From Nemertoderma westbladi (taxonomy: Eukaryota > Animalia > Xenacoelomorpha): a DNA stretch of 64,000 bases. Position 1 is the stretch's first letter. Every line of letters begins with the position of its first letter. The stretch covers positions 1,988-65,987 of the forward strand of contig JAUCBJ010007727.1 of the NCBI GenBank assembly GCA_032718475.1, given 5' to 3'. The position numbers and the translations under genes were made by a program. This document shows, piece by piece, positions 13,350-36,701 of the stretch. The notes under the pieces are model-generated. The model was not told the DNA's origin, made no database searches, and saw nothing but the letters and a program-made list of their open reading frames with translations.

Positions 13350-15430
13350 CTACTACTACTACTGTACTACTAGGTCGAGCGAACTCGGACAGTGGAAATG
13401 AGATCCTTCCAGGCTTCCCTGTTCCCCATAGTTGTCGCAATTTCGTTTCTCCCAAGTTCAGTATCCCTTTCAAGTTGATCTATATATGTTATGGCTGGTC
13501 GTCCACGACTACGCTTTCCATGAGTTGGTTGCCAGAGAAGTTGATCTGGTATGACCTCGTCTTTACTTCGCCAGCAGTGCTCACTGAATCTTAATCTGCG
13601 TTCATGGAGGGTGGTTGATACAGGTGGTATTGTACCATAAAGCTCGGCGTTTGTCATGTGTTGTCTCTAGCTGATATTTAGGGCTGCCCTTAGTAGTCTT
13701 GTGTAGCAACCATCAATTCGTTGTTCAAGTGATTTAGTCAGTGTCCAGGTCTCACCCCCGTATAAAAATACACTTTCCAATGTGGCTCGAAAGAACTTAG
13801 TCTTCAGGTGCCTGGAGAGATCTGATTTCCAGATGGTATCCATTTTTGATAGAGCTATCCATCCAAGCCTTTGCTTTCCTAACTTCTATGTCCTTTTTGC
13901 TACTCTCTATCCATGATCCAAGGTACTGGAAGTCGTCGACCTTCCTTAGTTGATTATTCTAAATTGTTGTCAAGTTTCCATCAACATTAAAGGTCATGAA
14001 TTCGGTCTTGGTAGCATTTATATGCAATCCCACCTCCTTAGCAGCCCTCTCCACTTTATTTAGTAGAAGTTGTGCATCTGCTAGTGTATTAGAGAGCAAG
14101 TCGATGTCATCCGCAAAGTCGGTGTCTGTGACTGTAGTTGCCGGATATCTACTACTTCTGCGTTCTTGACGTGTGAATCCCAGATCTTCACCCTTTGTGG
14201 CCGTCCTCATTGCGCAATCCAGCACAATTACAAATAGTAATGGTGCTAATGTGTCATCTTGCAGTACGCCAGCCAGGATTGAGAAAAACTCAGTTTCACC
14301 ATCTGGTGAGAGTACCTGCGCTTCTGTGTCACAATATAACAATCCAATGCCAGCAACAATTACTTCTGGTATTCCATAAGCTCTTAGGATTTCAAGCATT
14401 TTACCTCTATTGATGGAGTCGAATGCCTTCTTGAAGTCCACAAAAGTCATGACTGCTGGGAGATTCTTTGACTTAATTCCTTCAATCAGTCTCCGTAGTG
14501 CAAGTATCTGAGCTATTGATGACCTATTTGGTCGAAATCCGTTTTGGTTCTTACGCAGTAGTTTCTCTATGTGAGGCCTAATCCTATATAGAATCATTTT
14601 ATTGTATATTTTGGCAGCTACCACAAGCAGACAGATCCCACGATAGTTAGTTGGTATACCGAGGTCTCCTTTCTTGGGGAGAGGCTTTAGTTGACCTTTA
14701 GTTCAAATTGGTGGTGGCTTAACCCCTTTTAACATCCGGTTGCAAACATTCAATAATGGTCTGTTTAGCACTCCTGTTTTCCATACCTCCGCTGGGATTT
14801 CATCTAATCCACTCGCATTATTATTGGACATGCTTTTAATGCTTCTTTGGAGTTCGGCAGGTGTGAAGTCCCCTGTTTCTATAAGTAGTGTCTTGTCATA
14901 TATTTTCCTTGTAGGGCTGACCTCGATGTTTGGTGGCTGCCCAAGCAAGTTGCTGAAGTGATTTTTCCACTTCCCAACACGTTCTTCAGGACTATCGGCT
15001 TAGAGGCGCCCCTTTGCACAACTTTTCCGACCAGATACCACATTTACAGTTTGCCAGGTTAGTCTTGATTGTTGCTGTATGTGAGCAGTTGTAATTGCTT
15101 CAATTTTATCCTGTATGTACTTTCCTGGCTGATGTTGTAGGCCAATTTAAGATCGTCCTTAGCTTTCTCAACCTTGTTAATGATTTCGGTTGTTGGTTAT
15201 TCGGATTTTACTTTGTAGGCTATCTTAAGATCTTCTCTCTTACAAGTAACCTCGGAGTTTTGCCATGGCACATACTGTTTTCGTTTGGGTTTCTGGGGGA
15301 TATGCCTCTTAGCTGATTCCTTGTGGGCTTTTATTATATTCTGGTATATTGAATCGGTAGAATGGTCTTCATCTTCATCCATTGACTGAAGTGCTTCAAA
15401 GCGGCTTTGAACTTCTACTGTGCAAGCATC
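13350..15430 (-). mobile_element. Degenerate 5'-truncated RTE-clade LINE (~2.1 kb)
   Basis: Frameshifted RT pieces: ASGLDEIPAEVWK, QNGFRPNRS, FVDFKKAFDSI, GVLQDDTLAP, DFADDI. (CTA)n tail at 13350-13372. Confidence 0.93.
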
Positions 15431-16171
15431 CTACAGTGAAATGTTAATCTACAGTGACTAGGGTGACTACATATACAGAAATGTTACTCTGCCGAAAACA
15501 ATAAACTAAAGTCAATAGAACAGGTTACTCAGATGTTATTTAACTGGGATGAATTTTTATTGCGTCGAGATTATATCCTATATATGCAATTAATTGCAGT
15601 TACTGTAACAACTGCACGGTAAATGATCTTACACTTACCCTACTACAATGGCTATCATTATTGGAGAATTCGCCACCAGCGGTGGCGAATTCATTTTTTC
15701 CGCTCCATTTGCTATAGAGTTGGATCATCCTTAGTCCTGTTTAATTACTTAATAATTTATACAATCTATGAATGTTAAACACATATAAAATACAAATCAT
15801 TGTTTTGTATTAATAAAATCCACTACCTCAGGATAATAAACGTAGCAGTGCAAATAATAATTAGAAGTACAACCATGAATTAAATATTAATTATTAATGA
15901 ATTTGCATGAAATGGAATCCAATTACCAACAACGTAACACGGCAGTTTATTGCAGTCGTTTACGAGTGCAATCTTCCATGTACCAGCTGAATTCGCACAT
16001 CAGTATATTTATTGTTCGTATAAATCTGGATTTTTATGTTGTTACCACTAAAGAGATAACAGCAGCCCAATGGCTACATTCTCACACCAGGAGATCTCGT
16101 ATCTTTATGGCGTAGTAGTTAGTGAAACTTTGGTGTGCAAACAAATTATTTGCATTGAAAAATATTTCATA

Positions 16172-16296
16172 CCTTTAGTAAACAGAGTGGAAGGGTTTAA
16201 TGTGGAAGATCACCCATGGTGGTGAAGAGGCATTCCTTTAGTAAACAGAGTGGAGGGGTTTAATGTGGAAGATCACCCATGGTGGTGAACAGGCAT
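16172..16296. repeat. 63-bp satellite, left remnant (~2 units)
   Basis: Same unit as 33184-36370, interrupted at GGCAT by the LTR element. Confidence 0.9.
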
Positions 16297-18180
16297 TATT
16301 GGAAGAGACGGTAACAATACCTGCAATATCCTACTGTAAAGTTTGTAAATCAAATCATAAATCCGACCTTCTCACCAAAACAGTAAACTCTAAGTAAGCG
16401 AATATATTGCAGTATCGATCTCTTATAACCGGTGAGGCAGAAAACAGTCTACGAGCAGACAAACTTCGATAAAACAAAATCCCGCGCAGCGAATCCTAAA
16501 ATCAGGCTGACTCACTGACGGACTAAGGGGCTCGTATACTTTGCCGCGGTGTGATTTATATGGTTTGGGCAAAGGGACGCTAGCTAGGTACAGAGGCAGA
16601 TATTTGGAGATGTCTAACTAGCGGGCAAAGCACAGTACGGACAAAGTTAATTTTATATATTTCGAGGTGTAAATAATTTCTAACGCGCGTGTGTTAATTC
16701 TGAATGGTCAAAACAGTTTTGCTCCTTCACATATATAATTACTGGGTACGGTGTGCATTTTACGAATATTCTAATTTTGTAACTTGTAGGTCCAATACTC
16801 ACGAATGATAAGGTTCCTTCCCCTCTTGCGTATTTCCAGGACTCAAATTCAGGCATAAGGTTAATACTACGCCCAGAATTCGGCAATTTTAGGTACCAGG
16901 TCCCTGATACTAAGAAGAGATGTGTTAGTTTACTACTGTAGGCGTACAGGTACTAATAGCTATCCTAGCTCCTATCTAGAATTTTAGTCACCCAGGTAGT
17001 CCGGGTAACTTCCTATTAGGGCGTTGGCGGGGACACGGTAGATGTTAGTATATCCCTGATAGCCTCAATTTATTTGCGCCTAGTGTAAACTGCCCTACCG
17101 CCCGAACGGTACAATCCCAATTCAGGTGAAAACACAGCAACCCCCCTAGCCTACAAGTTCTGATGTAATGGACACCGTTGTACGGCAAATAGTCGCACAC
17201 ACACCTGTACTTAGCAAGAGTTAAGCGTACAGTTTGCTGCACCCTAACCAATGTGTATGCCTTGTACCGGTGTGCCTACGTCCTATCTGCGTACTAGTAT
17301 CTCTGCTCTCTCTCCCTCCCCCCGTAGGAATGTGAAGGTCTACTGTGGGTTTTCCTGAATCAAGACAGTACAGTCCCTATGATGTAATTTTAGGCTTGCA
17401 GCGTGTCACTACGTCTACCTTTTGATCTTTTGGTCTTACACTTAGGTAGCAAGGATCGAACGCTGTCTAACCTTTCAGGCGATGGGCGAATAACTCCAAA
17501 TGGTATTGCGGGTTGTCTCTCGTCTACATTCCCGTGATGTTCCCGTTCATTGCTGCGGCCCGATCTCTAGCCGGCCATCCTGTCCCTGAGTTTGTTCACC
17601 GTAGTGAATCCATAGTAAAACAGATAGAAAAGCTGAGAGAATATTCTGACTTTATTACAGAAGATACAATACAATGTAATCTGAGAATAAACTAAGCACG
17701 GAATAAACAAATATCAGATAACTGAATAACTGAGAGAATAATAACTAATGAACAAATCGCACCCTTTTATAGCCAATTTGTGCCGCAATCAATCGAGAAA
17801 ATTCTCGATTGTTCTATGGGTTCTAACAAGGTTTTAAAGATAGCTATTGGTCCAGCTAATATATAACTTGCACGACATTGGTTACAATCAAATAACTACA
17901 GCCTCATTGGTACAGACAAATGCAATTAATTTGTAGCGGTTAATTTAAATGAGTTGAAATTCTGCACAAAAAATAATTCGCACTTACTAGGATTCGAACT
18001 CGATACCTACTACACATATAATTTCCAACGCTCTACCAACTGAGCTACTGAACCACTTGACCGATAGATGTACAAATGATAGAACCAATACGAATGAGAA
18101 CTCAAAGCAATCTTTACAAAGTTAATTCGAATAAAATAAAATTTTGAAAATCCACGGCATTTAGGGAATATAATTCTATA
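16297..18180 (-). repeat. 3' LTR (1884 bp)
   Basis: Direct repeat of 31300-33183 at offset 15003. One mismatch noticed (16320 C vs 31323 A). AATAAA on minus strand at 17069-17074. Confidence 0.97.
17968..18054 (-). ncRNA. tRNA-derived Pol III cassette in U3 of the 3' LTR (not a functional tRNA)
   Basis: GGTTCAG-TAGCTCAGTTGGTAGAGC (A box with intact D arm), GAGTTCGAATCC (B box), T6 run. Acceptor, anticodon and T stems do not pair. Confidence 0.7.
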
Positions 18181-18664
18181 CCGCTCCATGAAAACAGGAT
18201 ATTATCGTGCATAAAATATACGGTTTTCACCAATAATCAATCAAACTATAGAATACTTAGGGCGTACTTACATATTTACAATTAAATTTCAAACGATACT
18301 TCCTTTCTACGTAATGATTCGATACAAAAATAATTACAAATTCAAACTTTACGTATTTAAGGCTTTACTAAGTAAGTACAATATAAATCTAAATTAAATT
18401 CACCAATATAAATCTATTGCATCTCAGATATTGCATAAATTCAAACAATTACAAATACAAATAAATGAAAACAATAAGAAAGGCTCGCGAGTCTTCCATC
18501 TACTATTGCATCCCAAATATTGCATAAATTCAAGTAATTACAAATACTTTCGTACCTAAATGTAGATTGCATAAGTTTGGAATAATTACAAATATGAGTC
18601 TTTCTGAGCACAAAATTTTCTATCTATAAAACTTTCTATTTCACTGTAAATACAAATACTGCTT

Positions 18665-19077: not shown

Positions 19078-20592
19078 TTATCGCTTAGTGGATCGAGCCC
19101 TGCCGCGTCCTCGAAAACTGCGCACAGGTGACTTTGCTCGCGATATGGGACTAATGGGGCGAGTCACTGATTTACTTGGGACGTTGAGGGACGGTGCGAC
19201 TATTTCCTCGCAAATTCGTCTGTTTGGCATCCCAAAACCTCGACCGATTCCTCGTGACCGATCAGTCGTCACTACAGTTGGTAGAACGTCTGGGAACGCG
19301 CGAGAAGTGGACGACGCAGACCCAAGAGTAGCTTGCGCCCCCTGTTGATCAGCTGGTGTATGTCCCGATCCTCCTACCGGTTCTCTTGGAAGTGATACCG
19401 TATCCCGAGTAACTCGAATAGTCGGCTCAACTCCCTTGCGTTCTTCTACATTAATAATTTTCTTCAATTGTTGGCCCACCTTCTGGACCCGTATGATCCT
19501 ACCCTGCCCGTCCTCCCGAGGGTGACGTGCAGACGGCGCAACCGGAGTGGCTGGTATATTCGTCGCCTCTAGGACCTCTTCTTCCTCGAATACGCTCGCT
19601 CGTATACGTTTGTGGTAAAACGCGGCTCGGTACGCCCATGCGACGGTTAACCAAGCTCCCTTGTTCCGCTTTTCAGTTCGGAAACGATCGAATTCACCAT
19701 ACGTAATCCGATTAACGACTTTCTGAAAATTCCACGTGTTTTTGTTATCCGGGTGAATTTGTAACAGATACTCGCGCACCACTCGGAATCCGCTGTCGTG
19801 GGGCAAAATATCGACAACCTCGATAAGTTCGTCATATTGGGGCATAGCGGAGATATATCCTTCTGACATCATCGTCTGAGGATTTACCGCCCAAAATCCA
19901 AGATGCGCTCTCATCGGAAACCGTCTTCTCTGTGCTGATACATGTTCGTCGGCTAAATCTTCCCACTCATCAAATAACTTCCTCACGAGTTTTACAGATT
20001 CGTGTTCATAAGGTATGTCTCTTAGTTGGCATTCAGATGCTCGATGTCCCTTTATATTGCAGTAAGTACATTGAGCCATAAATCTCCAGCAAGTATAAAA
20101 GGTATGAGACCCTTGATCCCCACACCATCCACAGATTAGCTGAGTCGTAGTAATGTGCTTTCCACTGCACTTTGCCATATGATGTCCAGCGACGCCACAT
20201 TTACTACACATCGTATTGGCAGGGTACCACACTCGTTCGTATATAAGATCTCCAATCGGTCGAGCGCTTCCTCCCACACTATAATCGTAATCATCTGGGT
20301 CTATGGGTTGGTAGGTTTCTGAAGGTTGTATACAAACTATAGCATCTGTTGCTTCAAGTTGTCGAATCTCCGTCTGAGATTTCTTCGGGAGGTTCCTTTC
20401 TATCTCAAGAAGTTCCTCTAAAGGATCGTCGGCGATCGTAGTAGTTACTTCGAATTCATCACCAAGGTGACCGATAGGCGCGCGCGTCTGCCGTGATTCA
20501 TCCGTAATTTCCACGATACGTTCTCCTTCATAGGGTAACAATGTAAACATAGATGGTCTTTCGATAAGAGATCCCGCACAGCGAAGATACAC
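19078..20592 (-). CDS. Extra ORF downstream of pol with three CCHC zinc knuckles (504 aa)
   Basis: CSKCGVAGHHMAKC, CGWCGDQGSHTFYTC, CTYCNIKGHRASEC. Acidic N-terminus and Arg/Ser/Gly-rich C-terminus. The ORF track starts at GTG; true start uncertain. Confidence 0.75.
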   Translation of the reverse strand: MYLRCAGSLIERPSMFTLLPYEGERIVEITDESRQTRAPIGHLGDEFEVTTTIADDPLEELLEIERNLPKKSQTEIRQLEATDAIVCIQPSETYQPIDPDDYDYSVGGSARPIGDLIYERVWYPANTMCSKCGVAGHHMAKCSGKHITTTQLICGWCGDQGSHTFYTCWRFMAQCTYCNIKGHRASECQLRDIPYEHESVKLVRKLFDEWEDLADEHVSAQRRRFPMRAHLGFWAVNPQTMMSEGYISAMPQYDELIEVVDILPHDSGFRVVREYLLQIHPDNKNTWNFQKVVNRITYGEFDRFRTEKRNKGAWLTVAWAYRAAFYHKRIRASVFEEEEVLEATNIPATPVAPSARHPREDGQGRIIRVQKVGQQLKKIINVEERKGVEPTIRVTRDTVSLPREPVGGSGHTPADQQGAQATLGSASSTSRAFPDVLPTVVTTDRSRGIGRGFGMPNRRICEEIVAPSLNVPSKSVTRPISPISRAKSPVRSFRGRGRARSTKR

Positions 20593-21442: not shown

Positions 21443-24400
21443 TTATTTACTAGTATTAGGTGGAGATTTGTAGTCTCCAGACTCGTTACGAGTCTCTTCA
21501 AGGAGTACGAGACGTTGAGTCGGTCTGTCTACTGTACGACCGTCAATTGTCCGTACCGTCACAGTTCTTGTCGCTCCATCCATAGATGGATGTGTGGCTA
21601 AAATGACACCTGTTATCCAGAAGCGTCTTTTTAGATTCACTTCTGCCAACAGCACGTGATCTCCCGGCTTTAATGCGCGGGTGTTATTATACCAAGTTGT
21701 TCTGGCAGAAATAGAGGGCAAATAATGGTTTTGCCATATTTCCCAGAATTTGTTAGCCAGTAGTTGCGTGATTTTCCACGCTTTTCTACCGTAGCTGTCG
21801 CTTTCTATTGGAATAGAAATCGGCGTTAATGTCGTCGGTGCCTGCATAAGCAGGTGTGCCGGTGTTAAAGCAAACTGGGATTGTTTGTCATCGGGTACTA
21901 ATACTATTGGTCTAGTATTTAGTATTGCCTCGATTTCAACAAACAATGTTGTCAGTTGGTCGTCTGTTAATATGTGGTTTACTGGAATGACCTTTGCCAT
22001 GGCTGTCTTTATAGATCTAATCAGTCTCTCCCAGACTCCGCCTCTCCAAGGACTATCTGGAGGATTAAACTTCCAAACAATCTTGTGAGGTTGTAGTTCG
22101 TTCGAGATTTGATCATGATCTAATTTCTTAAAGGCTCTAGCAATCTCATTCCGAGCACCAACGAAGTTTGTCCCTTGGTCTGAGTACAAGCATTTTACTA
22201 GTCCGCGTCTAGCGATAAATCGCCGCAGTGCTAGTATAAACGCGTTGGTGGAAAGATCCATCACACGTTCAATGTGAACTGCCCTACTGGACATACATGT
22301 GAAAATCAGTCCCCAGCGTTTTACTAGTATACGTCCACGTTTCGTATGTATGGGACCAAAGCAATCAATTCCAGTCTCTGTAAAAGGTGGTCTGAATGCT
22401 TGAAGTCGTGCTTGTGGTAGTTCACTCATTTCTTGGGTACCTATTCTAGAATGTACCTTTTTACAAATAATACACGTACGTGTCACTGAACTTAATGCTT
22501 TACTGGGTCTAATTAATACAAATCTAGTACGTAAGTAGGAAAGACAGTGGTGTCTTCCAGCGTGTTTCAGATGTAGATGTGCGTCCAGTATCATTGCACG
22601 TTGTAGTTCGTGGTGTTGCGGTATTATTATTGGGTACCTAAAGTTCGTGTTAAAGTCAATGTTTTGAAGCCGAGATTTATGACAAATTAAGCCATTATAA
22701 ATAATCGGACTCCAACTCAGTATTGGTGACGACTTGATTGGTTGACCTTGATTTATAGATGTGAATTCGCGCGCGAAATATCGCAGTTGGTAATGGCGAA
22801 TTAATTTAATCTCACACCTGTCAATCTCAGCCAATGTAAGTCGACGTGTAAAGTAACGTTTGCCTTTAACGTATTGTACAAAACGTACAATCCACGCTAG
22901 TTTTCGGCAAGCGTTCGACCAAGAATCTGTTAGGTTTACAATACGGTCGACATGAGTATTTGTGACGTCATCAGGTAAGTCAATGGAGAACTTGGAAGGT
23001 TTTGATTTACTAGAAGGGCCCACGGGTCCGCCGGTAGGTATTCCCTTGTTGACTGTTGATCCGTCCGGGTCTACAAGTAATTTGTCCTTCTTTGTCTTCT
23101 TACCTTGATTGTCAGTACTTTGTAAGTCGATCGTCAATGGTGGTTTGAACTCTATGGGATCAGTGGGTTTCGGTAAACTTATTTTTCTGCCGACATTAAT
23201 CCCAGGTCTCACCATAGGTTGCAAGTTCGGTATGTCTCTTGAGCGCAGAGTAACACCTGTATTTACATTAGCGTAGGTACTACCCACATCTGTAATACAT
23301 GAGGTTTCACCGTGCTTATGGTTGCTCAAGTGTGTCAAAATTGGTAGTTTGTCAATACAAGGCCGCTCCAATAGGGAAACTGCGGCTTTATCGTTAGTCA
23401 ATACATTACTAGTGTCTAGTCGACTGTCTAGTAATGTGTCTGGCGATACGTCTGGTAACGTATCTGGTTGTTTGTCAATAGAAGGCCGCTCCAATAGGGA
23501 AACTGCGGCTTTACTGTTTGTCAGTGTGTTACTAGCGTCTGGTGGAACATTTTGTGATATGTCTGGCAAAATGTCTGGTTGGCTGTCTAGTAACATGTCT
23601 GGTTGACCGTCTGGTAACGTGTCTGGTTGACCGTCTGGCGATATGTCTGGTGTAGAAAGGCTCGCAAGTCTTCCTCTCTTGACCTTTGAAGTTATATCTT
23701 TCCATTTCGCCTTCGGTTTTTTCTTGAGTTTCGCCGCCGTCGTCTTTTTCTTTGTCTTCCCCTTTTTTGGTTTCTTGATTTCGGCGTCCTTGGGAATGGT
23801 GTTGGACTTGTTGTCGTATAACGGAGGCCAATCTTGTGTCGATTTCTGCAAGAATTGGGGTCCGTGTTGCCAAAATTCTTTGTTCTCCGGTTTACAGAAT
23901 TCCTCAGGCATCATTCCTCGCGACGCAATATCAGCTGGGTTTTGTGGTCCGGGACAATGTCGCCAATCCCCTTTTATTGAACGGTCTAGAATTTCCGCGC
24001 GACGGTTAGCAACGAATGTCTTGAATTCGAGTGTGTCGTTGTTTATGTAAAATAAAACCAACGTCGCGTCAGTCCAATAAAATATCTGTAAACTCGACTG
24101 TAGTTCTGTCTGTATGAGGTTCACGATGGTGGTTGACAGGGTTGCGGCTTGTAGCTCGGCTCGTGGTGTCGTCATATACTTAGTAGGCATGGTCTTAGCC
24201 TTAGAAGTAATGAGCGAAACATCGAACTCGTCTGATTCTACTTGTCTGCGCAAGTACGCTGCCACACCAAAACCGTTGTCACTGGCGTCAGAAAAGCAGT
24301 GTAGTTCCAAGTTGTCAGGAAATGTACTTTGTAATGGAAAGTAAACCCTGGGTATGAAATAATCCTCTAGCGAAGATAATTCCGCCTCCCAGGTCTTCCA

Positions 24401-25893
24401 TAAGTCCACTTGGTCTGATGAGATCGGCTCGTCCCATGTTAGTCCATCCTTCCATATACTGCGCATATAAATGCGGGCTTGCAGTATCACTGGACTGATG
24501 AATCCTAACGGATCGAACAATCGGCTCAATTTTGACAAGCATGATCTCTTGGTCAGTGTGTTCTCTTGACTGTCCAGTCTCACTTTCACTCGAAAGTTGT
24601 CTGTGTTTGGGTCCCAAAAGAGCCCCAACACCTTAGTCGTCGGTAGTGGTTCGAACTCTAGGTCTATGTCACCACCTCCACGCTCAGTAGTTCCGAATGA
24701 GTCTACTAATTCGGCACTGTTTGAGGCGAATTTGGTGAGGTTAAAACCTCCGCCCGCCAAGCAGTCCCGTAATTGATGTGCTACTGTTGTAGCACGTTCT
24801 ACTGTGTCGCAACTCTGTAATCCGTCATCAACGTAAAAGTCACGCTCCACAATTCTAATTATCTCTGGGTCATATAGATGTTTCTGATCTCTAGCGGCCT
24901 GCTTTAGGGCGTACATCGTACAATTTGGGCTGTCTCTGGCACCGAAAACGCGAACTTGCATTTGGTAAGTCGCCGGTGGTAGACTTAAATCTCCTTCCGG
25001 GTACCAGAGGAACCGCAAACTGTCTCTGTCTCGCTCTAACGCCTTTACTTGGTGAAACATCGCTTCAACGTCACAAGTAAAAGCTACTTGACGCTGACGG
25101 AAGCGCATAATCACCCCCATAAGATAATTATTCATGTTCGGTCCATCCATCAACTCACTATTGAGGGACATTCCCTCAAACAGAGCCGCACAGTCATTGA
25201 CTACACGTACTTTGTCTGGTTTGTCGGGGTGTCTCACGTAGTGATGTGGCAAGTAATACGTTTGGTCGGTCACTCGCTCCGGGTTAGTCATTCGGATAGC
25301 GTATCCCTTTGTCAAATACGTCTCCATCTGAGTGTTATACTGCAGATGGGCTTTCTCGTCTTTTAATAGACGTTGTCGGATTGAGTGTAGACGTCTTAAA
25401 GCCAGTGGATAGTTGTTTATAAGTTTAGGACTTTGGCTACGCCATAACATCCCTACCTCATAATGTCCGTCTTTCGTCTGGTGGATAGTATCTTCCATGA
25501 TCTTCAGAGATTGTTTCTCCTGTTCCGACATACAAGGTTCATAGCTACCAGGTTCAGCTGTATCTTGTTCTAACCACCTGATAGTCTTCTCCGTTAATTC
25601 TTTGTCCAAGGCGGCTTGTTCCAACTGATGATTTCTCAACGCGTCATCATCGATATCGACGGGCACTGTTGAGGTTATTGGGGTAGGTAGACTCGCAAGC
25701 CTATCATCTGTCGTCGATGGAATCTCTAGCTGACTCGTCTTCCCCCCAAGTTCTAAACTCACCTTGTGGGTTAGCTGCTCCTTGTGACTTATCATACTAG
25801 TTACACGTCTGTCATGTTTTGTCGACTGTAGTGTAGTATGGTTCACGTCGTGTGAAAAGGAATGAATTGAATTTGTAGTTAATAAACTACATG
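21443..25893 (-). CDS. pol: BEL/Pao Pol: RT, RNase H, integrase, C-terminal DUF5641-like domain
   Basis: YYLPHH, DVEAMFHQV, FYVDD; LHCFSDAS, PRAELQAA, NPADIASRG; H..H..CxxC, GIDCFGP, SDQGTNF, GGVWERL. The frame stays open upstream of the 25846 ORF call up to the insertion boundary. Confidence 0.96.
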
Positions 25894-26096
25894 CAGGGCC
25901 GGATTAACCAGTAGGCTAATAAGGCTGAAGCCTTAGGGCCATTGAAAAAAGCGGTCACTTTCCTACAAAAATGTTGAATTGTAATGAGTTGAATGTAATG
26001 AGAGTTAATAGGAAGCCTATAAAATAGTCTGTAAAAGGGGCACTTTACATCATTAGTTTCTTAGTATATGGACCCGTCCGCGTCCGTCCATGTAGT
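25894..26096. mobile_element. One-ended hAT-MITE remnant interrupting gag-pol
   Basis: Begins CAGGGCCGGATTAAC (hAT-like TIR) and is flanked by CTACATG at 25887-25893 and 26097-26103. Removing 210 bp restores one continuous frame. Confidence 0.75.
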
Positions 26097-29000
26097 CTAC
26101 ATGTACTCTGTACATCGTCTTCCTCGTCACTTACGTCTAGTGTGCGCACAGGCGCTCGAGTATACCACCCTATCGGCGTTCTGCAGGCGTATGCGTTTCC
26201 CGCTACAACTGCCGATGGTCTGGTTTCCCACACCTGATGTAGGTTGAATTGGTCCGTCCCGATCAGCATTGCTACCGATCTATAATTGACAGGACATTCT
26301 GGTACACCAAGGTGTCTGAAATACTTACGGTCCTCTAGAGATTGTTCCGGCACTGGACCTAGTAGGTTACTAAAGTCCTTCGTGGCCGCAAAGGTTAGAT
26401 CTCTAAAAGGTAACAAAGACCTCTCCCTCTCGCTGTGCTGCGATTTCGGAAGAAGAGAGTCTAAGTCCAACTTAACTCGTGTCACTGGTATTGCACGCTG
26501 TCCGTGCATACTACTTACTGTATAACTGACGTGCTTACCTTGTTTTAGATCCGTCACGACGTCAGCTATCTTTTCGTCCACGTAGCTATGAGATGAGGCT
26601 GAATCTAGAATCGCATAGATCCTCTTGCTCCCCTTTGTGCCAGTAACCTTAATCGGGATTACACTGAATCCCTTCAGTTGATCAGTGGTCAGAAGCGCGA
26701 TCGACGGTTGTTCGTCTCCATTAGAATATTCGTCGTCGTCTTCTGATTCTTCGTCCGACGATCCGGATTGTTCTGAGAAGCAATCCTCAATATGGGTCAC
26801 GAAGGTTGGAGTCGTTTTTGATTCTCGTTTTCTATAGGCCGCATCACATCTCGCTGCTGCTTCCGGGTGTTCCCTGGCGAAGCGTTTCGTCGGCGTGTGG
26901 CTGTCTGTGTGGAGCAGACCGTCGTGGTTGCGTCCACAGGATGGACAAGTGTCAGTATTTGGGCAATCCTTACGCACGTGTCCGTGTCGCGTACACCGCC
27001 AACAAGAGTCCAGTGGCCGTATTTGCAGCCGTCGTTCTTCCGAGTTCAACTCGCGAAATTGTCGACAACCTCGTAACTTGTGACCGATATACCGCTTACC
27101 TAGATGCTCGCAGTATTGGCAGCCACTGAAGTCGGTACCAAGTTGCTGTCTCGTTTGTTTTGTCCCAATGGGCGCAGATACCCTACCTCCGTCCGAGAAT
27201 TGTCGTGATTCCGTCGGTGTGGTGTAAGTGGCCGTCTTAGTGGATGTTGTCTGGGGTTTTTGTCGGTTGGAGGATGGCAATGTGATCCCTTCTGCCACGA
27301 TGTGCTGGTCGGTGTAGTTAGATCGAGTTTCTACTACCGCCTCCCTGGATATTAAAAGGTACACATCTTCTAATTTTAAGAATCCTCCCCGCTCTTCTCG
27401 CTGGTATTCGACCTTCCTCCACTCCCGACGAAGTCGATGGTGGAGTCGTCCTATGATCTTTAATAGGACTGTAGGGGTATTCCCGTAATCAAGTTGTCCA
27501 ATTGATCTTAAGGTAGTGATAGCGTTCTTGATCTCGTCAGCTAGTTTTAGTAAGTCGACGGGTTTAGTGATAGCCCCTCCCTTACAGAGTTCCTCTATTA
27601 CTGACCTGGCCATGCTCACTGTACCTCCGTATATCGAAGTTAAACGATCGTACGCTAGTTCGAAAGCGTCCGGTACACCGACGAAAGTCTCCGCCAAACG
27701 TTTAGGTTCTCCTGACAACGTTTGAAGCAGGTAATTGAACTTCTCCCGTGATGTAAAGGCGCACACGGCGATCTGGGATTCGATATAGTCTACGAAGGTA
27801 TGCCAGTGTTTTGAGCTACCGGAAAACTTCGGTGGTTGTTGTACCGGCAATCCTTGTCTGGCTGCGAATTTCGCTATCTCCTCGGCAACGTCCAGAGTTT
27901 CGCGTCCTTGGTTGGTAGTCTGGTTGATGTTCTCCCTTCTTGGCGCTTTTCCCTGATACGATGTGTGTTTTGAAGGTACCGGTCTTTGTGGTTCCTTCGG
28001 GTGTCTATTGTGTTCGAATTCGGAATTTCTCGAACTGTCGGTGTAACCTTCCTCCAGACGTTCCTCGATCTGAGCCAACTTATTGACAACTGGTCGCAGG
28101 ATGTCGGCGAACTGTTGTGTACTAATTGCGTCCGTTGGTTGTAACGCCTTCTGTGTTGGTGTATTCTGTGGAGGATTGTCTGCAAAGGAGTTGTCTGAAC
28201 GCTCGCGTTTGTATTCATCGGCCGCCCCTGTTCTAAATACCTCGCGTTTCGGGTAATCCGATTCGCTCGAAGTACTACTATCATCCGGATATGGTGGTCG
28301 ACGTGCTCGCGTTCGTTGCGTCGTACGAATTCTAACGGTTCGTTTCGGAACATCGTCCACTGATCTCCGTTGTTCGGTAGGCTCACAAGTCTTCCTCGAA
28401 GTCGTAGATTGCGATGTAAATTGGTTGAATGGTCGCGTCTCCACTGTTCTCCGTTGTTCGGTAGGCTCACAAGTCTTCCTCGAAGTCGTAGATTGCGATG
28501 TAAATTGGTTGAATGGTCGCGTCTCCACTGTTCTCCATTGTTCGGTAGGCTCACAAGTCTTCCTCGAAGTCGTAGATTGCGATGTAAATTGGTTGAATGG
28601 TCGCGTCTCCACTGTTCTCCGTTGTTCGGTAGGCTCACAAGTCTTCCTCGAAGTCGTAGATTGCGATGTAAACTGAATCGGTGGTCGGACGACCGCGTTT
28701 GAATCCAAAGGCCTTGTAGGCCGAAATGTCATTGGGTATTCGTAGTGCGTAACGGGTTTAGGTGTCAAAGGTGGACTCACCTGTTTTGTCGTCAGTAGTG
28801 CAGGTCCGACTAATAAACTACTACGATCTGTAATCGGTGGGTTACTTACCTTGACTTTCGGAATAGGCGACGACGTTGCTCTTGGCGGTGTAAACTTGTC
28901 CGGAATAACAAACCTGTGCTCCGTCACACCATGGATAGGAGAGATATCGCTGCTACCAGCAATCGAAACAGGTTCCTTAGTCGTAACCGGTGCAAACATA

Positions 29001-30487
29001 TGAGTCACCTGTGGGAATCGTTGACACAAGTCCTTTACTAATTGTCGTTCCCGTCCGGGTGCTCCCACGCTTCCTTCTTTCTTTCGTTCCTGAATTTGGC
29101 GATGTCTTACCTCTATCTGGTCCAAGTCATGTCCGTCTCGAGATCTCATTGATCGATCGCGGGCCCTTTGATCCAGATCTTCCTCAGCGTTCGCTAATTC
29201 TCTCGCCTTCTTCTCAAGTTCGAAATGAAGTTTAGCTGTCTTCTCTCGTTGTTCCGTTTGTCGTTGTTGCGCCTCAAATTCTGCTTGTCGTATAGCGGAT
29301 TGAGCCTTTATTTGCCGTGTTTTCATTTCGGCCCGTGCTTCCGAAACTAACCTGTCTCGTTCTAATTCCGCCGCTGCCGCTGCCGCTGCCGCTTGTCGCT
29401 CTGACTCTGCCGCTTGTCGCTCTGACTCGGCCGCTGCCGCTGCCGCTTGTCGCTCTGACTCTGCCGCTGCCGCTGCCGCTTGTCGGGCAATGTCTACCTC
29501 TAACCTTTCTACTTCAGCTGCTTCTAATTCAGCTTGTTCCTGTAGATGAGAGATTCTCGCTTTATTCGCAACGCGTAGCTTCTCTTCCTCTACTGCTGCC
29601 TGCATCACTAGAAGTTGAGCTTGTTCCTCCATTTCTCGTCGTTGTCGGTAGAATTCTTGCTGTTGTCGAGCAACTTCTGACGTAACCATACTTCCCTCGC
29701 CAATTTCGCTACGAATACTTACCAACGATTGATCCAATATTCCTGGTGCCGATTCGATTTGTGCGAGCGAAGTTTCCCTCGTAGCCTCCGGCACGGTTTC
29801 CCAATCTCCGACGTCCTCGCCGCACATGCGTAAGTGATCCGTCAGGTGTTTCAATTGTCCATCCAGTCGGTACAGTTCCTGTTCTTCTTCGGGTTGTAAT
29901 AATTCGTCCGAAACTGACTCACCTAACAACTGATCCGCTTGTTCCTGTTGTATCTGTCTAATCGTCGACTTAAACTGAATCAGTTTCTCTCTAGCGATCA
30001 TTAGTTTCTCGAGGATTCTAAGTTGAGCATCCATGTCCTGTCTCTGTCTAGCTAGATCTTGTAGACCAATTAGGTTATCGACGGACTTGTGTACTCTACT
30101 TTGTACTCTAACCTGGAGGGTGTAGAACTCGAATCGAGACATCGGAGCGGTCAACTCGTCTAATATGCGATGACCTTCTCCAATACTCCTGGTTATATGC
30201 GCCATATATCCTCCGACGCTTCTAACCACACTTTCTGTGCTTCCTGCTGAACTTACCATTTCCGTTTCCCTATATCTAGGTTGCGGAACAGTTAGAAAGT
30301 CCTCGGTCCTGCCGTCGCCTCGTACTACGGCATCCGGTACTCCCGTTGGATGTACTGGTGACGCACACGGTGTAGGTTCGGTAGGCTCGCGAGTCTTCCC
30401 CTGTTGTTCCTCCGCTGCTGACTTATCCGCGTCACACGAGTCATAGTCGGTAGGTGTATTCTTCGTATAGTCTTGTTTGTCACTCAT
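26045..30487 (-). CDS. gag: BEL/Pao Gag and aspartic protease
   Basis: DUF1759-like PKFSG...W..F...EKFNYL, BEL-type triple Cys/His cluster (CQYC..H..C, CWRC..H..C, CPSCGRNHDGLLH), protease AILDSAS, TPIGW. The stop at 26045 lies inside the insertion. Confidence 0.95.
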   Translation of the reverse strand: MSDKQDYTKNTPTDYDSCDADKSAAEEQQGKTREPTEPTPCASPVHPTGVPDAVVRGDGRTEDFLTVPQPRYRETEMVSSAGSTESVVRSVGGYMAHITRSIGEGHRILDELTAPMSRFEFYTLQVRVQSRVHKSVDNLIGLQDLARQRQDMDAQLRILEKLMIAREKLIQFKSTIRQIQQEQADQLLGESVSDELLQPEEEQELYRLDGQLKHLTDHLRMCGEDVGDWETVPEATRETSLAQIESAPGILDQSLVSIRSEIGEGSMVTSEVARQQQEFYRQRREMEEQAQLLVMQAAVEEEKLRVANKARISHLQEQAELEAAEVERLEVDIARQAAAAAAESERQAAAAAAESERQAAESERQAAAAAAAAELERDRLVSEARAEMKTRQIKAQSAIRQAEFEAQQRQTEQREKTAKLHFELEKKARELANAEEDLDQRARDRSMRSRDGHDLDQIEVRHRQIQERKKEGSVGAPGRERQLVKDLCQRFPQVTHMFAPVTTKEPVSIAGSSDISPIHGVTEHRFVIPDKFTPPRATSSPIPKVKVSNPPITDRSSLLVGPALLTTKQVSPPLTPKPVTHYEYPMTFRPTRPLDSNAVVRPPIQFTSQSTTSRKTCEPTEQRRTVETRPFNQFTSQSTTSRKTCEPTEQWRTVETRPFNQFTSQSTTSRKTCEPTEQRRTVETRPFNQFTSQSTTSRKTCEPTEQRRSVDDVPKRTVRIRTTQRTRARRPPYPDDSSTSSESDYPKREVFRTGAADEYKRERSDNSFADNPPQNTPTQKALQPTDAISTQQFADILRPVVNKLAQIEERLEEGYTDSSRNSEFEHNRHPKEPQRPVPSKHTSYQGKAPRRENINQTTNQGRETLDVAEEIAKFAARQGLPVQQPPKFSGSSKHWHTFVDYIESQIAVCAFTSREKFNYLLQTLSGEPKRLAETFVGVPDAFELAYDRLTSIYGGTVSMARSVIEELCKGGAITKPVDLLKLADEIKNAITTLRSIGQLDYGNTPTVLLKIIGRLHHRLRREWRKVEYQREERGGFLKLEDVYLLISREAVVETRSNYTDQHIVAEGITLPSSNRQKPQTTSTKTATYTTPTESRQFSDGGRVSAPIGTKQTRQQLGTDFSGCQYCEHLGKRYIGHKLRGCRQFRELNSEERRLQIRPLDSCWRCTRHGHVRKDCPNTDTCPSCGRNHDGLLHTDSHTPTKRFAREHPEAAARCDAAYRKRESKTTPTFVTHIEDCFSEQSGSSDEESEDDDEYSNGDEQPSIALLTTDQLKGFSVIPIKVTGTKGSKRIYAILDSASSHSYVDEKIADVVTDLKQGKHVSYTVSSMHGQRAIPVTRVKLDLDSLLPKSQHSERERSLLPFRDLTFAATKDFSNLLGPVPEQSLEDRKYFRHLGVPECPVNYRSVAMLIGTDQFNLHQVWETRPSAVVAGNAYACRTPIGWYTRAPVRTLDVSDEEDDVQSTCRLHGRTRTGPYTKKLMM
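28358..28680 (-). repeat. 84-bp in-frame tandem repeat in gag (~3.7 copies)
   Basis: Encodes QFTSQSTTSRKTCEPTEQRRTVETRPFN repeats. Confidence 0.95.
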
Positions 30488-31288
30488 TTCGGTAGTTGTA
30501 AGTCAAGTAAAGTGAGTGTCAAAGTATCGGGTTTACCGTATTTATATCTAAACGGTACTAATTACAGTCTTATAAAATTAGCCTACCGGCCGATTTTATA
30601 GCAGATGGATAAAATTAGCCTAAACGGCCAATTTTACAGCAAATGAATGTCACGGAATAAGTATATAATAAAATTAGCCTAGCGGCCAATTTTATAACAA
30701 ATAAATCGGATAATGATATGCGTTATCAAAAGGTAAATTAAATACAATAATACGGACTAATTCAGCAATGAACAAAGAAATCATACGGAATGCATAAATA
30801 CTTGAGACAGTGGAACCCACAATAATTTTTAACTAATACGGTAATGCCTAACTTATTTATGCAACTTTTCGAACTCACCCACTCCAATAATTCTCCAGAA
30901 AAACAGATTCCCAGATACAAACCGAACGTGAACCTTTCCGTTTTTAACGTTGCGGACGAAACGCGATTTTCCCAACCAAAGTTGTTGAGTTATCTATCTC
31001 CCAAACTTGCTAAACACGGTCTTGCTCCCGTTACAGTCTAGAAATGAGTTCTGAATCCTGAAAAAACAAAAGAGTTAGGTTTTACTTTACGAAAATTTTG
31101 TACCGGTACAATATGGTATTTAAACCCTTTTTAAACACCGGTATTCAATTCCAAAAATATTTTACACGCGGTTCAAATCAAATTTTATTTCAAAATATTA
31201 GCACTTAGCTAATCAAATACAAAATTTTTACCTCAAAATACAAAATTTTCAAATAACTTTAGTCCTACCGAACCGTAGTTCAGTAAAA

Positions 31289-31299
31289 CACATTCCTAC
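31289..31299 (-). promoter_or_regulatory. Primer-binding-site position, non-tRNA type (GTAGGAATGTG)
   Basis: Directly abuts the 5' LTR, lacks TGG, and is the exact complement of minus-strand LTR sequence at 32327-32337. Confidence 0.65.
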
Positions 31300-32733
31300 T
31301 ATTGGAAGAGACGGTAACAATAACTGCAATATCCTACTGTAAAGTTTGTAAATCAAATCATAAATCCGACCTTCTCACCAAAACAGTAAACTCTAAGTAA
31401 GCGAATATATTGCAGTATCGATCTCTTATAACCGGTGAGGCAGAAAACAGTCTACGAGCAGACAAACTTCGATAAAACAAAATCCCGCGCAGCGAATCCT
31501 AAAATCAGGCTGACTCACTGACGGACTAAGGGGCTCGTATACTTTGCCGCGGTGTGATTTATATGGTTTGGGCAAAGGGACGCTAGCTAGGTACAGAGGC
31601 AGATATTTGGAGATGTCTAACTAGCGGGCAAAGCACAGTACGGACAAAGTTAATTTTATATATTTCGAGGTGTAAATAATTTCTAACGCGCGTGTGTTAA
31701 TTCTGAATGGTCAAAACAGTTTTGCTCCTTCACATATATAATTACTGGGTACGGTGTGCATTTTACGAATATTCTAATTTTGTAACTTGTAGGTCCAATA
31801 CTCACGAATGATAAGGTTCCTTCCCCTCTTGCGTATTTCCAGGACTCAAATTCAGGCATAAGGTTAATACTACGCCCAGAATTCGGCAATTTTAGGTACC
31901 AGGTCCCTGATACTAAGAAGAGATGTGTTAGTTTACTACTGTAGGCGTACAGGTACTAATAGCTATCCTAGCTCCTATCTAGAATTTTAGTCACCCAGGT
32001 AGTCCGGGTAACTTCCTATTAGGGCGTTGGCGGGGACACGGTAGATGTTAGTATATCCCTGATAGCCTCAATTTATTTGCGCCTAGTGTAAACTGCCCTA
32101 CCGCCCGAACGGTACAATCCCAATTCAGGTGAAAACACAGCAACCCCCCTAGCCTACAAGTTCTGATGTAATGGACACCGTTGTACGGCAAATAGTCGCA
32201 CACACACCTGTACTTAGCAAGAGTTAAGCGTACAGTTTGCTGCACCCTAACCAATGTGTATGCCTTGTACCGGTGTGCCTACGTCCTATCTGCGTACTAG
32301 TATCTCTGCTCTCTCTCCCTCCCCCCGTAGGAATGTGAAGGTCTACTGTGGGTTTTCCTGAATCAAGACAGTACAGTCCCTATGATGTAATTTTAGGCTT
32401 GCAGCGTGTCACTACGTCTACCTTTTGATCTTTTGGTCTTACACTTAGGTAGCAAGGATCGAACGCTGTCTAACCTTTCAGGCGATGGGCGAATAACTCC
32501 AAATGGTATTGCGGGTTGTCTCTCGTCTACATTCCCGTGATGTTCCCGTTCATTGCTGCGGCCCGATCTCTAGCCGGCCATCCTGTCCCTGAGTTTGTTC
32601 ACCGTAGTGAATCCATAGTAAAACAGATAGAAAAGCTGAGAGAATATTCTGACTTTATTACAGAAGATACAATACAATGTAATCTGAGAATAAACTAAGC
32701 ACGGAATAAACAAATATCAGATAACTGAATAAC

Positions 32734-32913
32734 TGAGAGAATAATAACTAATGAACAAATCGCACCCTTTTATAGCCAATTTGTGCCGCAATCAATCGAG
32801 AAAATTCTCGATTGTTCTATGGGTTCTAACAAGGTTTTAAAGATAGCTATTGGTCCAGCTAATATATAACTTGCACGACATTGGTTACAATCAAATAACT
32901 ACAGCCTCATTGG
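32734..32913 (-). promoter_or_regulatory. Putative LTR Pol II promoter
   Basis: Three CCAAT boxes (32909-13, 32880-84, 32849-53) spaced ~30 bp, TATAAAAG at 32774-32767, and Inr-like TTAGTT/TCAGTT at ~32749 and ~32734. Confidence 0.65.
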
Positions 32914-32970
32914 TACAGACAAATGCAATTAATTTGTAGCGGTTAATTTAAATGAGTTGAAATTCTGCAC

Positions 32971-33057
32971 AAAAAATAATTCGCACTTACTAGGATTCGA
33001 ACTCGATACCTACTACACATATAATTTCCAACGCTCTACCAACTGAGCTACTGAACC
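32971..33057 (-). ncRNA. tRNA-derived Pol III cassette in U3 of the 5' LTR
   Basis: Copy of 17968-18054. Confidence 0.7.
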
Positions 33058-33183
33058 ACTTGACCGATAGATGTACAAATGATAGAACCAATACGAATGA
33101 GAACTCAAAGCAATCTTTACAAAGTTAATTCGAATAAAATAAAATTTTGAAAATCCACGGCATTTAGGGAATATAATTCTATA

Positions 33184-36100
33184 GGCATTCCTTTAGGAAA
33201 CAGAGTGGAAGGGTTTATTGTGGAAGATCACCCATGGTGGTGAACAGGCATTCCTTTAGGAAACAGAGTGGAAGGGTTTACTGTGGAAGATCACCCATGG
33301 TGCTGAACAGGCATTCCTTTAGGAAACAGAGTGGAAGGGTTTACTGTGGAAGATCACCCATGGTGGTGAAGAGGTATTCCTTTAGGAAACAGAGTGGAAT
33401 GGTTTACTGTGGAAGATCACCCATGGTGGTGAACAGGCATTCCTTTAGGAAACAGAGTGGAAGGGTTTACTGTGGAAGATCACCCATGGTGGTGAAGAGG
33501 TATTCCTTTAGGAAACAGAGTGGAATGGTTTACTGTGGAAGATCACCCATGGTGGCGAACAGGCATTCCTTTAGGAAACAGAGTGGAAGGGTTTATTGTG
33601 GAAGATCACCCATGGTGGTGAACAGGCATTCCTTTAGGAAACAGAGTGGAAGGGTTTACTGTGGAAGATCACCCATGGTGCTGAACAGGCATTCCTTTAG
33701 GAAACAGAGTGGAAGGGTTTACTGTGGAAGATCACCCATGGTGGTGAAGGGTATTCCTTTAGGAAACAGAGTGGAATGGTTTACTGTGGAAGATCACCCA
33801 TGGTGGCGAACAGGCATTCCTTTAGGAAACAGAGTGGAGGGGTTTACTGTGAAAGATCACCCATGGTGGTGAACAGGCATTCCTTTAGGAAACAGAGTGG
33901 AGGGGTTTACTGTGAAAGATCACCCATGGTGGCGAACAGGCATTCCTTTAGGAAACAGAGTGGAAGGGTTTACTGTGGAAGATCACCCATGGTGGTGAAC
34001 AGGCATTCCTTTAGGAAACAGAGTGGAGGGGTTTACTGTGAAAGATCACCCATGGTGGTGAACAGGCATTCCTTTAGGAAACAGAGTGGAAGGGTTTAAT
34101 GTGGAAGATCACCCATAGTGCTGAACAGTCATTCCTTTTGGAAACAGAGTGGAAGGGTTTACTGTGGAAGATCACCCATGGTGGTGAACAGGCATTCCTT
34201 TAGGAAACAGAGTGGAGGGGTTTACTGTGAAAGATCACCCATGGTGGTGAACAGGCATTCCTTTAGGAAACAGAGTGGAAGGGTTTACTGTGAAAGATCA
34301 CCCATGGTGGTGAACATGCATTCTTTTAGGAAACAGAGTGGAGGGGTTTACTGTGAAAGATCACCCATGGTGGTGAACAGGCATTCCTTTAGGAAACAGA
34401 GTGGAAGGGTTTACTGTGAAAGATCACCCATGGTGGTGAACATGCATTCTTTTAGGAAACAGAGTGGAGGGGTTTACTGTGAAAGATCACCCATGGTGGT
34501 GAACAGGCATTCCTTTAGGAAACAGAGTGGAAGGGTTTACTGTGAAAGATCACCCATGGTGGTGAACATGCATTCTTTTAGGAAACAGAGTGGAGGGGTT
34601 TACTGTGGAAGATCACCCATGGTGGTGAACAGGCATTCCTTTAGGAAACAGAGTGGAGGGGTTTACTGTGAAAGATCACCCATGGTGGTGAACAGGCATT
34701 CCTTTAGGAAACAGAGTGGAAGGGTTTACTGTGAAAGATCACCCATGGTGGTGAACATGCATTCTTTTAGGAAACAGAGTGGAGGGGTTTACTGTGAAAG
34801 ATCACCCATGGTGGTGAACAGGCATTCCTTTAGGAAACAGAGTGGAAGGGTTTAATGTGGAAGATCACCCATGGTGGTGAACAGGCATTCCTTTAGGAAA
34901 CAGAGTGGAGGGGTTTACTGTGAAAGATCACCCATGGTGGCGAACAGGCATTCCTTTAGGAAACAGAGTGGAAGGGTTTAATGTGGAAGATCACCCATAG
35001 TGCTGAACAGTCATTCCTTTTGGAAACAGAGTGGAAGGGTTTACTGTGGAAGATCACCCATGGTGGTGAACAGGCATTCCTTTAGGAAACAGAGTGGAGG
35101 GGTTTACTGTGAAAGATCACCCATGGTGGTGAACAGGCATTCCTTTAGGAAACAGAGTGGAAGGGTTTACTGTGAAAGATCACCCATGGTGGTGAACATG
35201 CATTCTTTTAGGAAACAGAGTGGAGGGGTTTACTGTGAAAGATCACCCATGGTGGTGAACAGGCATTCCTTTAGGAAACAGAGTGGAAGGGTTTAATGTG
35301 GAAGATCACCCATGGTGGTGAACAGGCATTCCTTTAGGAAACAGAGTGGAGGGGTTTACTGTGAAAGATCACCCATGGTGGCGAACAGGCATTCCTTTAG
35401 GAAACAGAGTGGAAGGGTTTACTGTGGAAGATCACCCATGGTGGTGAACAAGCATTCCTTTAGGAAACAGAGTGGAAGGGTTTAATGTGGAAGATCACCC
35501 ATAGTGCTGAACAGTCATTCCTTTTGGAAACAGAGTGGAAGGGTTTACTGTGGAAGATCACCCATGGTGGTGAACAGGCATTCCTTTAGGAAACAGAGTG
35601 GAAGGGTTTAATGTGGAAGATCACCCATAGTGCTGAACAGTCATTCCTTTTGGAAACAGAGTGGATGGGTTTACTGTGAAAGATCACCCATGGTGGCGAA
35701 CAGGCATTCCTTTAGGAAACAGAGTGGAAGGGTTTACTGTGGAAGATCACCCATTGTGGTGAACAGGCATTCCTTTAGGAAACAGAGTGGAAGGGTTTAC
35801 TGTGGAAGATCACCCATGGTGGTGAACAGGCATTCCTTTAGGAAACAGAGTGGAGGGGTTTACTGTGAAAGATCACCCATGGTGGTGAACAGGCATTCCT
35901 TTAGGAAACAGAGTGGAGGGGTTTACTGTGGAAGATCACCCATGGTGGTGAACAGGCATTCCTTTAGGAAACAGAGTGGAAGGGTTTAATGTGGAAGATC
36001 ACCCATAGTGCTGAACAGTCATTCCTTTTGGAAACAGAGTGGAAGGGTTTACTGTGGAAGATCACCCATGGTGGTGAACAGGCATTCCTTTAGGAAACAG

Positions 36101-36370
36101 AGTGGAGGGGTTTACTGTGAAAGATCACCCATGGTGGTGAACAGGCATTCCTTTAGGAAACAAAGTGGAGGGGTTTACTGTGAAAGATCACCCATGGTGG
36201 CGAACAGGCATTCCTTTAGGAAACAGAGTGGAGGGGTTTACTGTGAAAGATCACCCATGGTGGAGAACAGGCATTCCTTTAGGAAACAGAGTGGAAGGGT
36301 TTAATGTGGAAGATCACCCATGGTGGTGAACAGGCATTCCTTTAGGAAACAGAGTGGAAGGGTTTACTGT
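33184..36370. repeat. 63-bp satellite, ~50 units with recurring variants
   Basis: Unit GGCATTCCTTTAGGAAACAGAGTGGAAGGGTTTACTGTGGAAGATCACCCATGGTGGTGAACA. Confidence 0.97.
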
Positions 36371-36701
36371 TGAAGATTTTTACTGTTATTATTTATTTAA
36401 TGAAAATCGGTTGCGATAAACTTATGTATATTCGTGTACCTTTACCTTTATATTCGTGTACTTTTAGAGAAAAAAACATACTTCTATCAAAATACACTAT
36501 AAAAATATACGGGACAATAGTAAAGTGTAAAGAAGAAAAAAAAAGGGGGGGGGGGGGGGGGGGGGTGAAAGTTCACTCTTTAGTATGCGTAATACCTTTT
36601 TAGAAAAAATGTATCATGAAAAAAAGTGAAAAAGAAACACTATGAAATAAAGTGAAAGTGACATAGTTTAGTTGCAAGGTGATGCTGAGTCTTAATCTCA
36701 C

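Follow-up and report, generated by a model that had tools for sequence, protein, structure and literature searches.

A BEL/Pao retrotransposon in the 64-kb stretch of Nemertoderma westbladi DNA analyzed here (the window) carries, directly behind its 5′ LTR, a primer-binding site complementary to a segment of its own LTR, and such pairing recurs with changing sequences across 36 families of elements, its own included. We consider it highly probable that these elements prime reverse transcription with their own RNA in some form. The comparison of sequences thus supports the self-priming interpretation proposed in a first-pass annotation of this DNA. The sequences also suggest how this is achieved: the element probably primes with an 11-nt LTR segment that would be cut from the body of its own RNA.

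Comparison of the window with itself delimited an element of 16,887 bp on the minus strand, as are all of its parts described below. Its two LTRs of 1884 bp each (5′ LTR, 33183-31300; 3′ LTR, 18180-16297) have TA...TA ends and are 99.95% identical, with a single mismatch at 31323; the 16.9-kb element is young and recently inserted. Its insertion target is a 63-bp satellite, present in 51 copies at 33183-36377 and 16168-16297. The target-site duplication ATGCC is found upstream within the satellite (33184-33188) and downstream (16292-16296), and the flanking satellite also permits 6- or 7-bp readings that would move the LTR ends by one base. A short polypurine tract, GGAGCGG, is located at 18181-18187. 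ORF1 (26045-30487) encodes Gag (DUF1759, zinc knuckle) and a protease-type motif (LDSAS). It is separated by one stop and ∼140 nt of non-coding sequence (25903-26045) from the ORF2 frame (21443-25903), which encodes a reverse transcriptase (RT; YVDD), a Pao-type RNase H (RH; PF05380), and an integrase (zinc finger, D-D-E region, DUF5641). In-frame tandem repeats occur in two places: within ORF1 (28356-28672, 3.8 copies of 84 bp) and in the region that separates RNase H from integrase (23342-23651, 123-bp and 24-bp units). A third open reading frame, ORF3 (19078-20550), encodes ∼490 amino acids from its first ATG, including three zinc knuckles; it matched no Pfam family and had no homologue among 7994 candidates scored. 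ORF3 is not env-like and could encode an RNA chaperone.

These features place the element with some precision. The DUF1759 Gag, the PF05380 RNase H, the DUF5641 integrase tail, and the order PR-RT-RH-IN are those of BEL/Pao proteins, and two LTRs, a 5-bp target duplication (4-6 bp expected), and a polypurine tract agree with the structure of this group. The RT/RH region shows 38-43% identity to BEL/Pao proteins, and the best 120 of 1604 matches all contain PF05380. Named matches stem mostly from molluscs, echinoderms, and corals (aquatic invertebrates, plus one fish); none of the solved structures matched this region. In a quick tree of 36 rows, the RT of the window forms a long branch with at most 44% identity to its relatives. 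Pao families are present and a chromodomain is absent at E 0.001, in contrast to what a Ty3/gypsy chromovirus would show. The ICTV profile of the Belpaoviridae (genus Semotivirus) describes an 18-nt site for host tRNA-Arg or tRNA-Gly, LTRs of 0.2-1.2 kb, and genomes of 4.2-10 kb (PMC8742986). Our element shares with it the LTRs, Gag and the PR-RT-RH-IN order, the polypurine tract, the metazoan host, and the Pao-specific Pfam families (PMC8742986). It differs by an 11-nt site without TGG whose complement lies in its own LTR, by its 1.9-kb LTRs and total size, by the TA...TA ends, and by the additional zinc-knuckle ORF. Judged by its sequence, the element belongs to the BEL/Pao lineage but is not a textbook semotivirus.

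The primer-binding site GTAGGAATGTG (31289-31299) is flush with the LTR end. Its exact complement CACATTCCTAC, the predicted self-primer, is located at 32327-32337 (LTR position 847), with a second copy in the 3′ LTR (17324-17334), and the match ends at exactly 11 nt. The predicted 3′-OH follows 32327, between AC and GG; in relatives, AC is followed by C or G. The non-TGG site and its 11-nt complement were correctly recognized in the first-pass annotation (31299-31289 and 32337-32327), as were all other coordinates given there. In 20,000 dinucleotide shuffles of the LTR, a match of at least 11 nt arose seven times at offset 0 (3.5e-4), in line with the earlier estimate of 4.5e-4, and 26 times at any offset from 0 to 3. 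There are ten perfect 11-nt inverted matches within the 2.9 kb of LTR and leader, which would speak for a chance inverted repeat in a single copy. We give this explanation practically no weight, given the low probability at this particular position and the covariation across families described below, which refutes it.

To collect relatives we aligned the RT/RH region, which yielded 79 metagenome loci, taken from the best 80 of 524, along with 15 loci that had been misbinned in assemblies of prokaryotes; two scans of viral contigs returned no relatives. The latter 15 are animal BEL/Pao contigs inside bacterial metagenome-assembled genomes of GTDB (L080-L094), likely as host contamination. One locus (L029) was excluded as a duplicate of L023, and 14 were left out for having too little 5′ sequence. 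For 17 loci the LTR end could be fixed by the divergence of both LTR copies at the 3′ end; three loci with unreliable ends were set aside. The search for complements permitted either a contiguous match or one split by a GT-AG intron. A complement of 10-15 nt to the own LTR was found in 16/17 fixed-end elements including the window, or 15/16 without it. Among cross-pairs of sites and LTRs from different elements, at least 10 nt were reached in only 15/272 cases, six of which fall among three loci sharing one primer. Using the wrong strand gave 2/17 and sliding the site by 16 nt gave 0/17. The sole miss among the fixed-end elements, L081, has 8 exact nucleotides with one mismatch in the primer, and its splice sites are present. 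Where the whole 5′ LTR was available but the end was free, 12/13 loci reached at least 10 nt, compared to 12/156 cross-pairs; the thirteenth shows 11 nt across a 1022-nt intron. As a raw count, fifty further partial loci divide into 20 with at least 10 nt and 30 below, many of the latter being short of LTR sequence.

Clustering at 80% RT identity, from which L087 was dropped for its short RT segment, left 36 primer-bearing families, among them that of the window. These families share 36-79% RT identity and contain 32 distinct 11-mer primers, so the covariation between primer site and LTR segment that self-priming predicts holds over a considerable range of divergence. Primers of 11 nt are most frequent (21 families), followed by 12 nt (five), 10 nt (four), and 13 or 15 nt (three each), and the paired site starts 0-5 nt from the LTR end. 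The primer ends in AC or AT in 15/16 unfiltered cases; an A at position -2 occurs in 36/36 families, a value that is partly circular since sites starting with GT or AT were required for free-end and partial loci, and we claim only the 15/16. A poly(A) signal is found at most 130 nt below the primer in 25/36 families. These counts are not independent events, the relatives being related to each other and derived from similar aquatic-invertebrate samples. In three of the loci (L021, L027, and L052), the LTRs start with TG, where seen, and end with TA instead of CA, compared to TA...TA in the window.

Could a host tRNA, a tRNA fragment, or a small RNA ending in CACAUUCCUAC serve as primer, with the LTR match as a by-product? 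Internal tRNA fragments prime some copia-type elements, and one related locus, L026, carries TGG at offset 1. Priming by host tRNA is also what the ICTV profile gives for the family (PMC8742986). An ordinary TGG site in sister elements would indeed have spoken against self-priming, but 16/17 related loci with a fixed LTR end lack TGG near that end, and L026 itself also carries a 10-nt complement in its own LTR. Moreover, the 36 families have 32 different sites that match their own LTRs, 27 of them only across a splice junction, which makes a host RNA very improbable as the primer. A tRNA-like segment does occur in U3 (32971-33057), with polymerase III A- and B-boxes and a T run, and is also copied in the 3′ LTR; it might have been captured as a SINE head or might act as an internal promoter. 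Neither ARAGORN nor Rfam called it, and ARAGORN found zero tRNA genes in the 64-kb window. The four Rfam matches within 30500-33200 all scored far under the gathering score and gave no known ribozyme or tRNA family. We rejected this segment as a primer, for it has no complementarity to the primer site.

In 27/36 families a GT-AG intron has to be removed for the primer to form, whereas the primer is contiguous in 9/36; both kinds are interleaved on the quick tree. For these predictions, donors were only required to be GT, and splice sites were not selected for strength. Nevertheless, 10/12 donors read GTRAG, compared to 17/190 in cross-pairs and 29/829 of all GT sites, and the predicted acceptors of relatives carry pyrimidine tracts. 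A further indication comes from a pair of loci that are 90% identical over 7 kb: L052 lacks exactly the 168-nt intron predicted for L049, indicating that this junction has been spliced. We also considered the first step of splicing as the source of the primer 3′-OH and rejected it, since GT follows the primer in only 2/36 families. For the element in the window itself, a splice-built primer was likewise rejected, as the best candidates reach only 8-9 nt and have weak splice sites.

The pairing in the window extends beyond the 11 bp. We found a duplex of three helices, namely the 11-bp core, an 8-bp helix between a purine run and the U5 end, and a third helix of 7 bp on the 5′ side of the core, with a total of about -40 kcal/mol compared to -27 for the next-best LTR region. 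The purine run lies 3′ of the primer (32312-32323) and can pair with the U5 end in two registers. The first-pass annotation had described the one in which GGGAGAGA pairs with TCTCTTCC (31304-31311), by analogy to the R:U5 helix of Tf1. This helix of 8 bp, including one G-U pair, is possible, but the folding program favors the register shifted by 4 nt (32323-32316). As a feature of the group the R:U5 helix did not hold up: across families the own pairing averages -7.3 kcal/mol compared to -7.5 for cross-pairs, and only 3/36 families, the window among them, fall into the top tenth.

The helix on the other side of the primer had been overlooked. Here, the arm CAGTAGA (32342-32348) lies 4 nt before the primer and can pair with TTTACTG in the leader (31281-31287). 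Across families, pairing between the sequence upstream of the primer and the leader reaches -11.0 kcal/mol compared to -8.0 for cross-pairs, with 14/36 families in the top tenth. Relative to own shuffles the mean z is -0.96, and the effect is absent 30-90 nt further away. A helix of at least four pairs occurs in 16/36 families compared to 142/1260 cross-pairs (11%), and one of Watson-Crick pairs only in 12/36 compared to 31/1260; both were counted after a loop of 2-4 nt on the primer strand, loop sizes that we picked after seeing the shuffle result. With a wide range of loops and the unfiltered set, the values are 13/16 and 103/240. The window carries the 7-bp helix, but the score of its 30-nt window alone is not above shuffles. 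On these comparisons, the short helix 5′ of the primer, rather than the R:U5 helix, is the conserved type across families. An A at -13 from the primer 3′ end, in the loop before this helix, is present in 27/36 families and absent in the window. With this difference and with an RT so distant from those of its relatives, details may not transfer between them and the window. The pretzel of Tf1, in which two flanking duplexes involve the LTR downstream of the primer, is not what we observe across families, since R:U5 pairing is at chance and the leader pairs upstream instead.

In folds starting at 32474, 32400, or 32337, the pairing probability of primer and site is 0.93-1.0 for 10 of the 11 pairs. 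When the whole leader from 32745 is folded, the primer instead pairs with 32160-32133. This competing helix is weaker (-27.9 compared to -36.0 kcal/mol) and unremarkable among LTR windows, and we rejected it (32353-32324/32160-32133) as a switch because it is not above background. Its existence is nevertheless a point for the idea that the pairing is selected for packaging, dimerization, or a switch between splicing and translation, with priming by a protein or another RNA, as is the fact that the pairing spans an intron whose removal gives the mRNA (see below). A structural switch of this kind would not need a site placed 0-5 nt from the LTR end, a length that hardly varies, or a 3′ end that stays constant, and we regard this explanation of the pairing as quite improbable.

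If the element primes with its own RNA, the primer could be released from within the transcript or could be its 5′ end; the first-pass annotation had named an internal cut or a second start site as alternatives. A predicted promoter, as judged from motifs, consists of CCAAT at 32913, 32884, and 32853 and of TATAAA (32769-32774), with a start near 32745. The primer is thus ∼410 nt below the TATA-driven start, as had been noted. In the Tf1 manner, a further start without a TATA box, at 32337 or directly adjacent, would place the primer at a capped 5′ end, and the upstream promoter would serve only the spliced mRNA. Several observations fit such a start: complementarity ends abruptly at ∼11 nt in the majority of families, a fold from 32337 yields the duplex, the A at -13 may correspond to a start site 2 nt above it, and TTCACATT at 32339-32332 fits an initiator consensus. 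Tf2 makes its genomic RNA and its translated RNA from alternative start sites (PMC5341516). On the other hand, the leader pairs above chance with sequence on the 5′ side of the primer, in relatives as well as in the window, which requires that this sequence be transcribed. In addition, the 11-mer begins with C or T in 21/36 families, and a TATA box at -30 of the primer occurs in 1/36 and is absent in the other 35. We therefore think a second start at the primer unlikely. The conserved upstream helix, the rarity of TATA at -30, and the splicing of upstream RNA together favor an internal primer.

Evidence for upstream RNA comes from public sequencing runs. We mapped four of them (X1, X3, X4, and X5) to 30500-33183, bearing in mind that the family is multicopy. 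One contig of X4, with a depth of 249.8, joins 32475 to 31057 and thereby removes the primer, U5, and the primer site. The 1417 nt removed (31058-32474) have the signals of a GT-AG intron, with the donor GAAAG/GTTAGA, a CCTAAC branch-site motif, a pyrimidine tract, and CAG. It is absent from X1, X3, and X5 and was seen in one contig of this one run, which is labelled 'DNA?'; its uneven cover suggests that X4 is RNA. Because the joint starts upstream of the primer, RNA that begins above the primer exists, and one of its products skips primer, U5, and primer site. This product, spliced from 32474 to 31058, is the predicted mRNA for translation. X5 has no cover at the primer or the primer site; neither shows a variant among the 40 variants listed, and none of the 10 joints listed changes strand as an over-copied primer would.

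The runs also provided some observations on the LTR. X4 covers 32750-33183 at a depth 10-30-fold above that of most of the stretch. A second X4 contig departs at the donor 32475 into sequence foreign to the window, possibly representing an LTR-driven chimeric transcript. In X1, X3, and X4, loose ends at 31292-31311 suggest that in some sister copies a duplication covers the end of the LTR together with a portion of the primer site; it may represent a plus-strand primer copy that was retained.

For the preferred reading, an internal primer, we propose the following series of steps, for which we infer the cut, the RNA ends, and the enzyme by analogy. RNA would start upstream of the primer, driven by the TATA box at 32774, and fold such that 32337-32327 lies on the primer site, braced by the 5′-side helix across a 4x1 loop. 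The RT/RNase H of the element, whose motifs are present in ORF2, would cut after the AC ending at 32327, as in Tf1, and thereby create the 3′-OH. Minus-strand synthesis would then proceed through U5 and R as far as the cut, and its product would jump to the 3′ R. The latter must reach past the primer, and a poly(A) signal 250 nt below the primer end (AATAAA, 32072-32077) would be needed for this first strand transfer; a further AATAAA upstream of the primer (32654-32659) would break the transfer if its 3′ LTR copy were active. During plus-strand synthesis, copying of the primer would end at the loop and thus regenerate the 11-nt site, which would explain the constant 11-nt sites that co-evolve with the LTR. 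In Tf1, about half of the cDNA retains a DNA copy of the primer site at its 3′ end (PMC11042837); through such a step, primer and site would become coupled. Splicing from 32474 to 31058 would yield an RNA for translation that lacks both the primer and its site. Most relatives would first depend on splicing for assembly of the primer, with the intron passed on via the unspliced copy in the 3′ LTR.

Self-priming itself is known, and the primer duplex of Tf1 comprises ∼11 nt. Like our element, Tf1, Tf2, Tj1, and the sushi group have a site just after the 5′ LTR that is complementary to an LTR segment, use no tRNA, and need a cut to free the primer 3′-OH (PMC5341516, PMC4600332, PMC10085805). These elements are Ty3/gypsy chromoviruses, whereas the proteins encoded by our element are of the BEL/Pao type and we found no chromodomain. 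The Tf1 primer is proximal to the cap, whereas that of our element is likely inside the transcript, and most BEL/Pao relatives, unlike Tf1, assemble theirs across an intron. BEL elements of the Cer7/Cer14 type in C. elegans reportedly encode their own primer as a tRNA-like sequence that lies in the 3′ untranslated region and ends in CCA, with a primer site of the TGG type; the predicted primer in the window is instead an LTR segment that lacks any tRNA form. A canonical tRNA site is also missing from fungal GalEa copia elements and bivalve TRIMs, whose priming is unexplained; their inverted repeats lie within the internal region and not between LTR and primer site (PMC6934838). Full-text searches, with Repbase, GyDB, and subscription journals outside their scope, returned no paper on self-priming, introns, or a missing site in BEL/Pao elements. 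Term counts gave zero mentions of PBS or tRNA in the main text of the Sinbad paper, a metazoan BEL/Pao survey, and a mollusc survey. Within the scope of these searches, probable self-priming appears to be new for the BEL/Pao family, which has been described as tRNA-primed, and its architecture is not that of Tf1.

We lean towards regarding this as a third priming architecture in a large animal branch of BEL/Pao. It would combine an excised internal 11-nt primer, a conserved loop and helix on its 5′ side, a cut site after AC, and assembly mostly by splicing, with the choice of splice sites setting apart genome (primer made or kept) and messenger (primer and site skipped). The results contradict the ICTV statement on host-tRNA priming for a large part of the Belpaoviridae. 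They indicate self-priming outside the sole gypsy group where it has been described, and the primer points to an internal, often splice-built origin. If correct, reverse transcription would be tied to the spliceosome, the elements would be free of tRNA supply and presumably of silencing by tRNA fragments, and RT/RNase H would have to cut RNA-RNA duplexes at a defined site. It would also explain why LTR finders that score tRNA sites would miss or down-rank such elements. Any host of such elements would allow these predictions, which are precise to single bases, to be checked.

Outside the element, the window contains a near-perfect 45-bp array of 120 copies (55772-61179); ORFs and Pfam matches inside this array and the 63-bp satellite are artefacts. 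Two further reverse transcriptase fragments (RVT_1), at 3159-4031 and 13959-14702, are probably derived from non-LTR elements.
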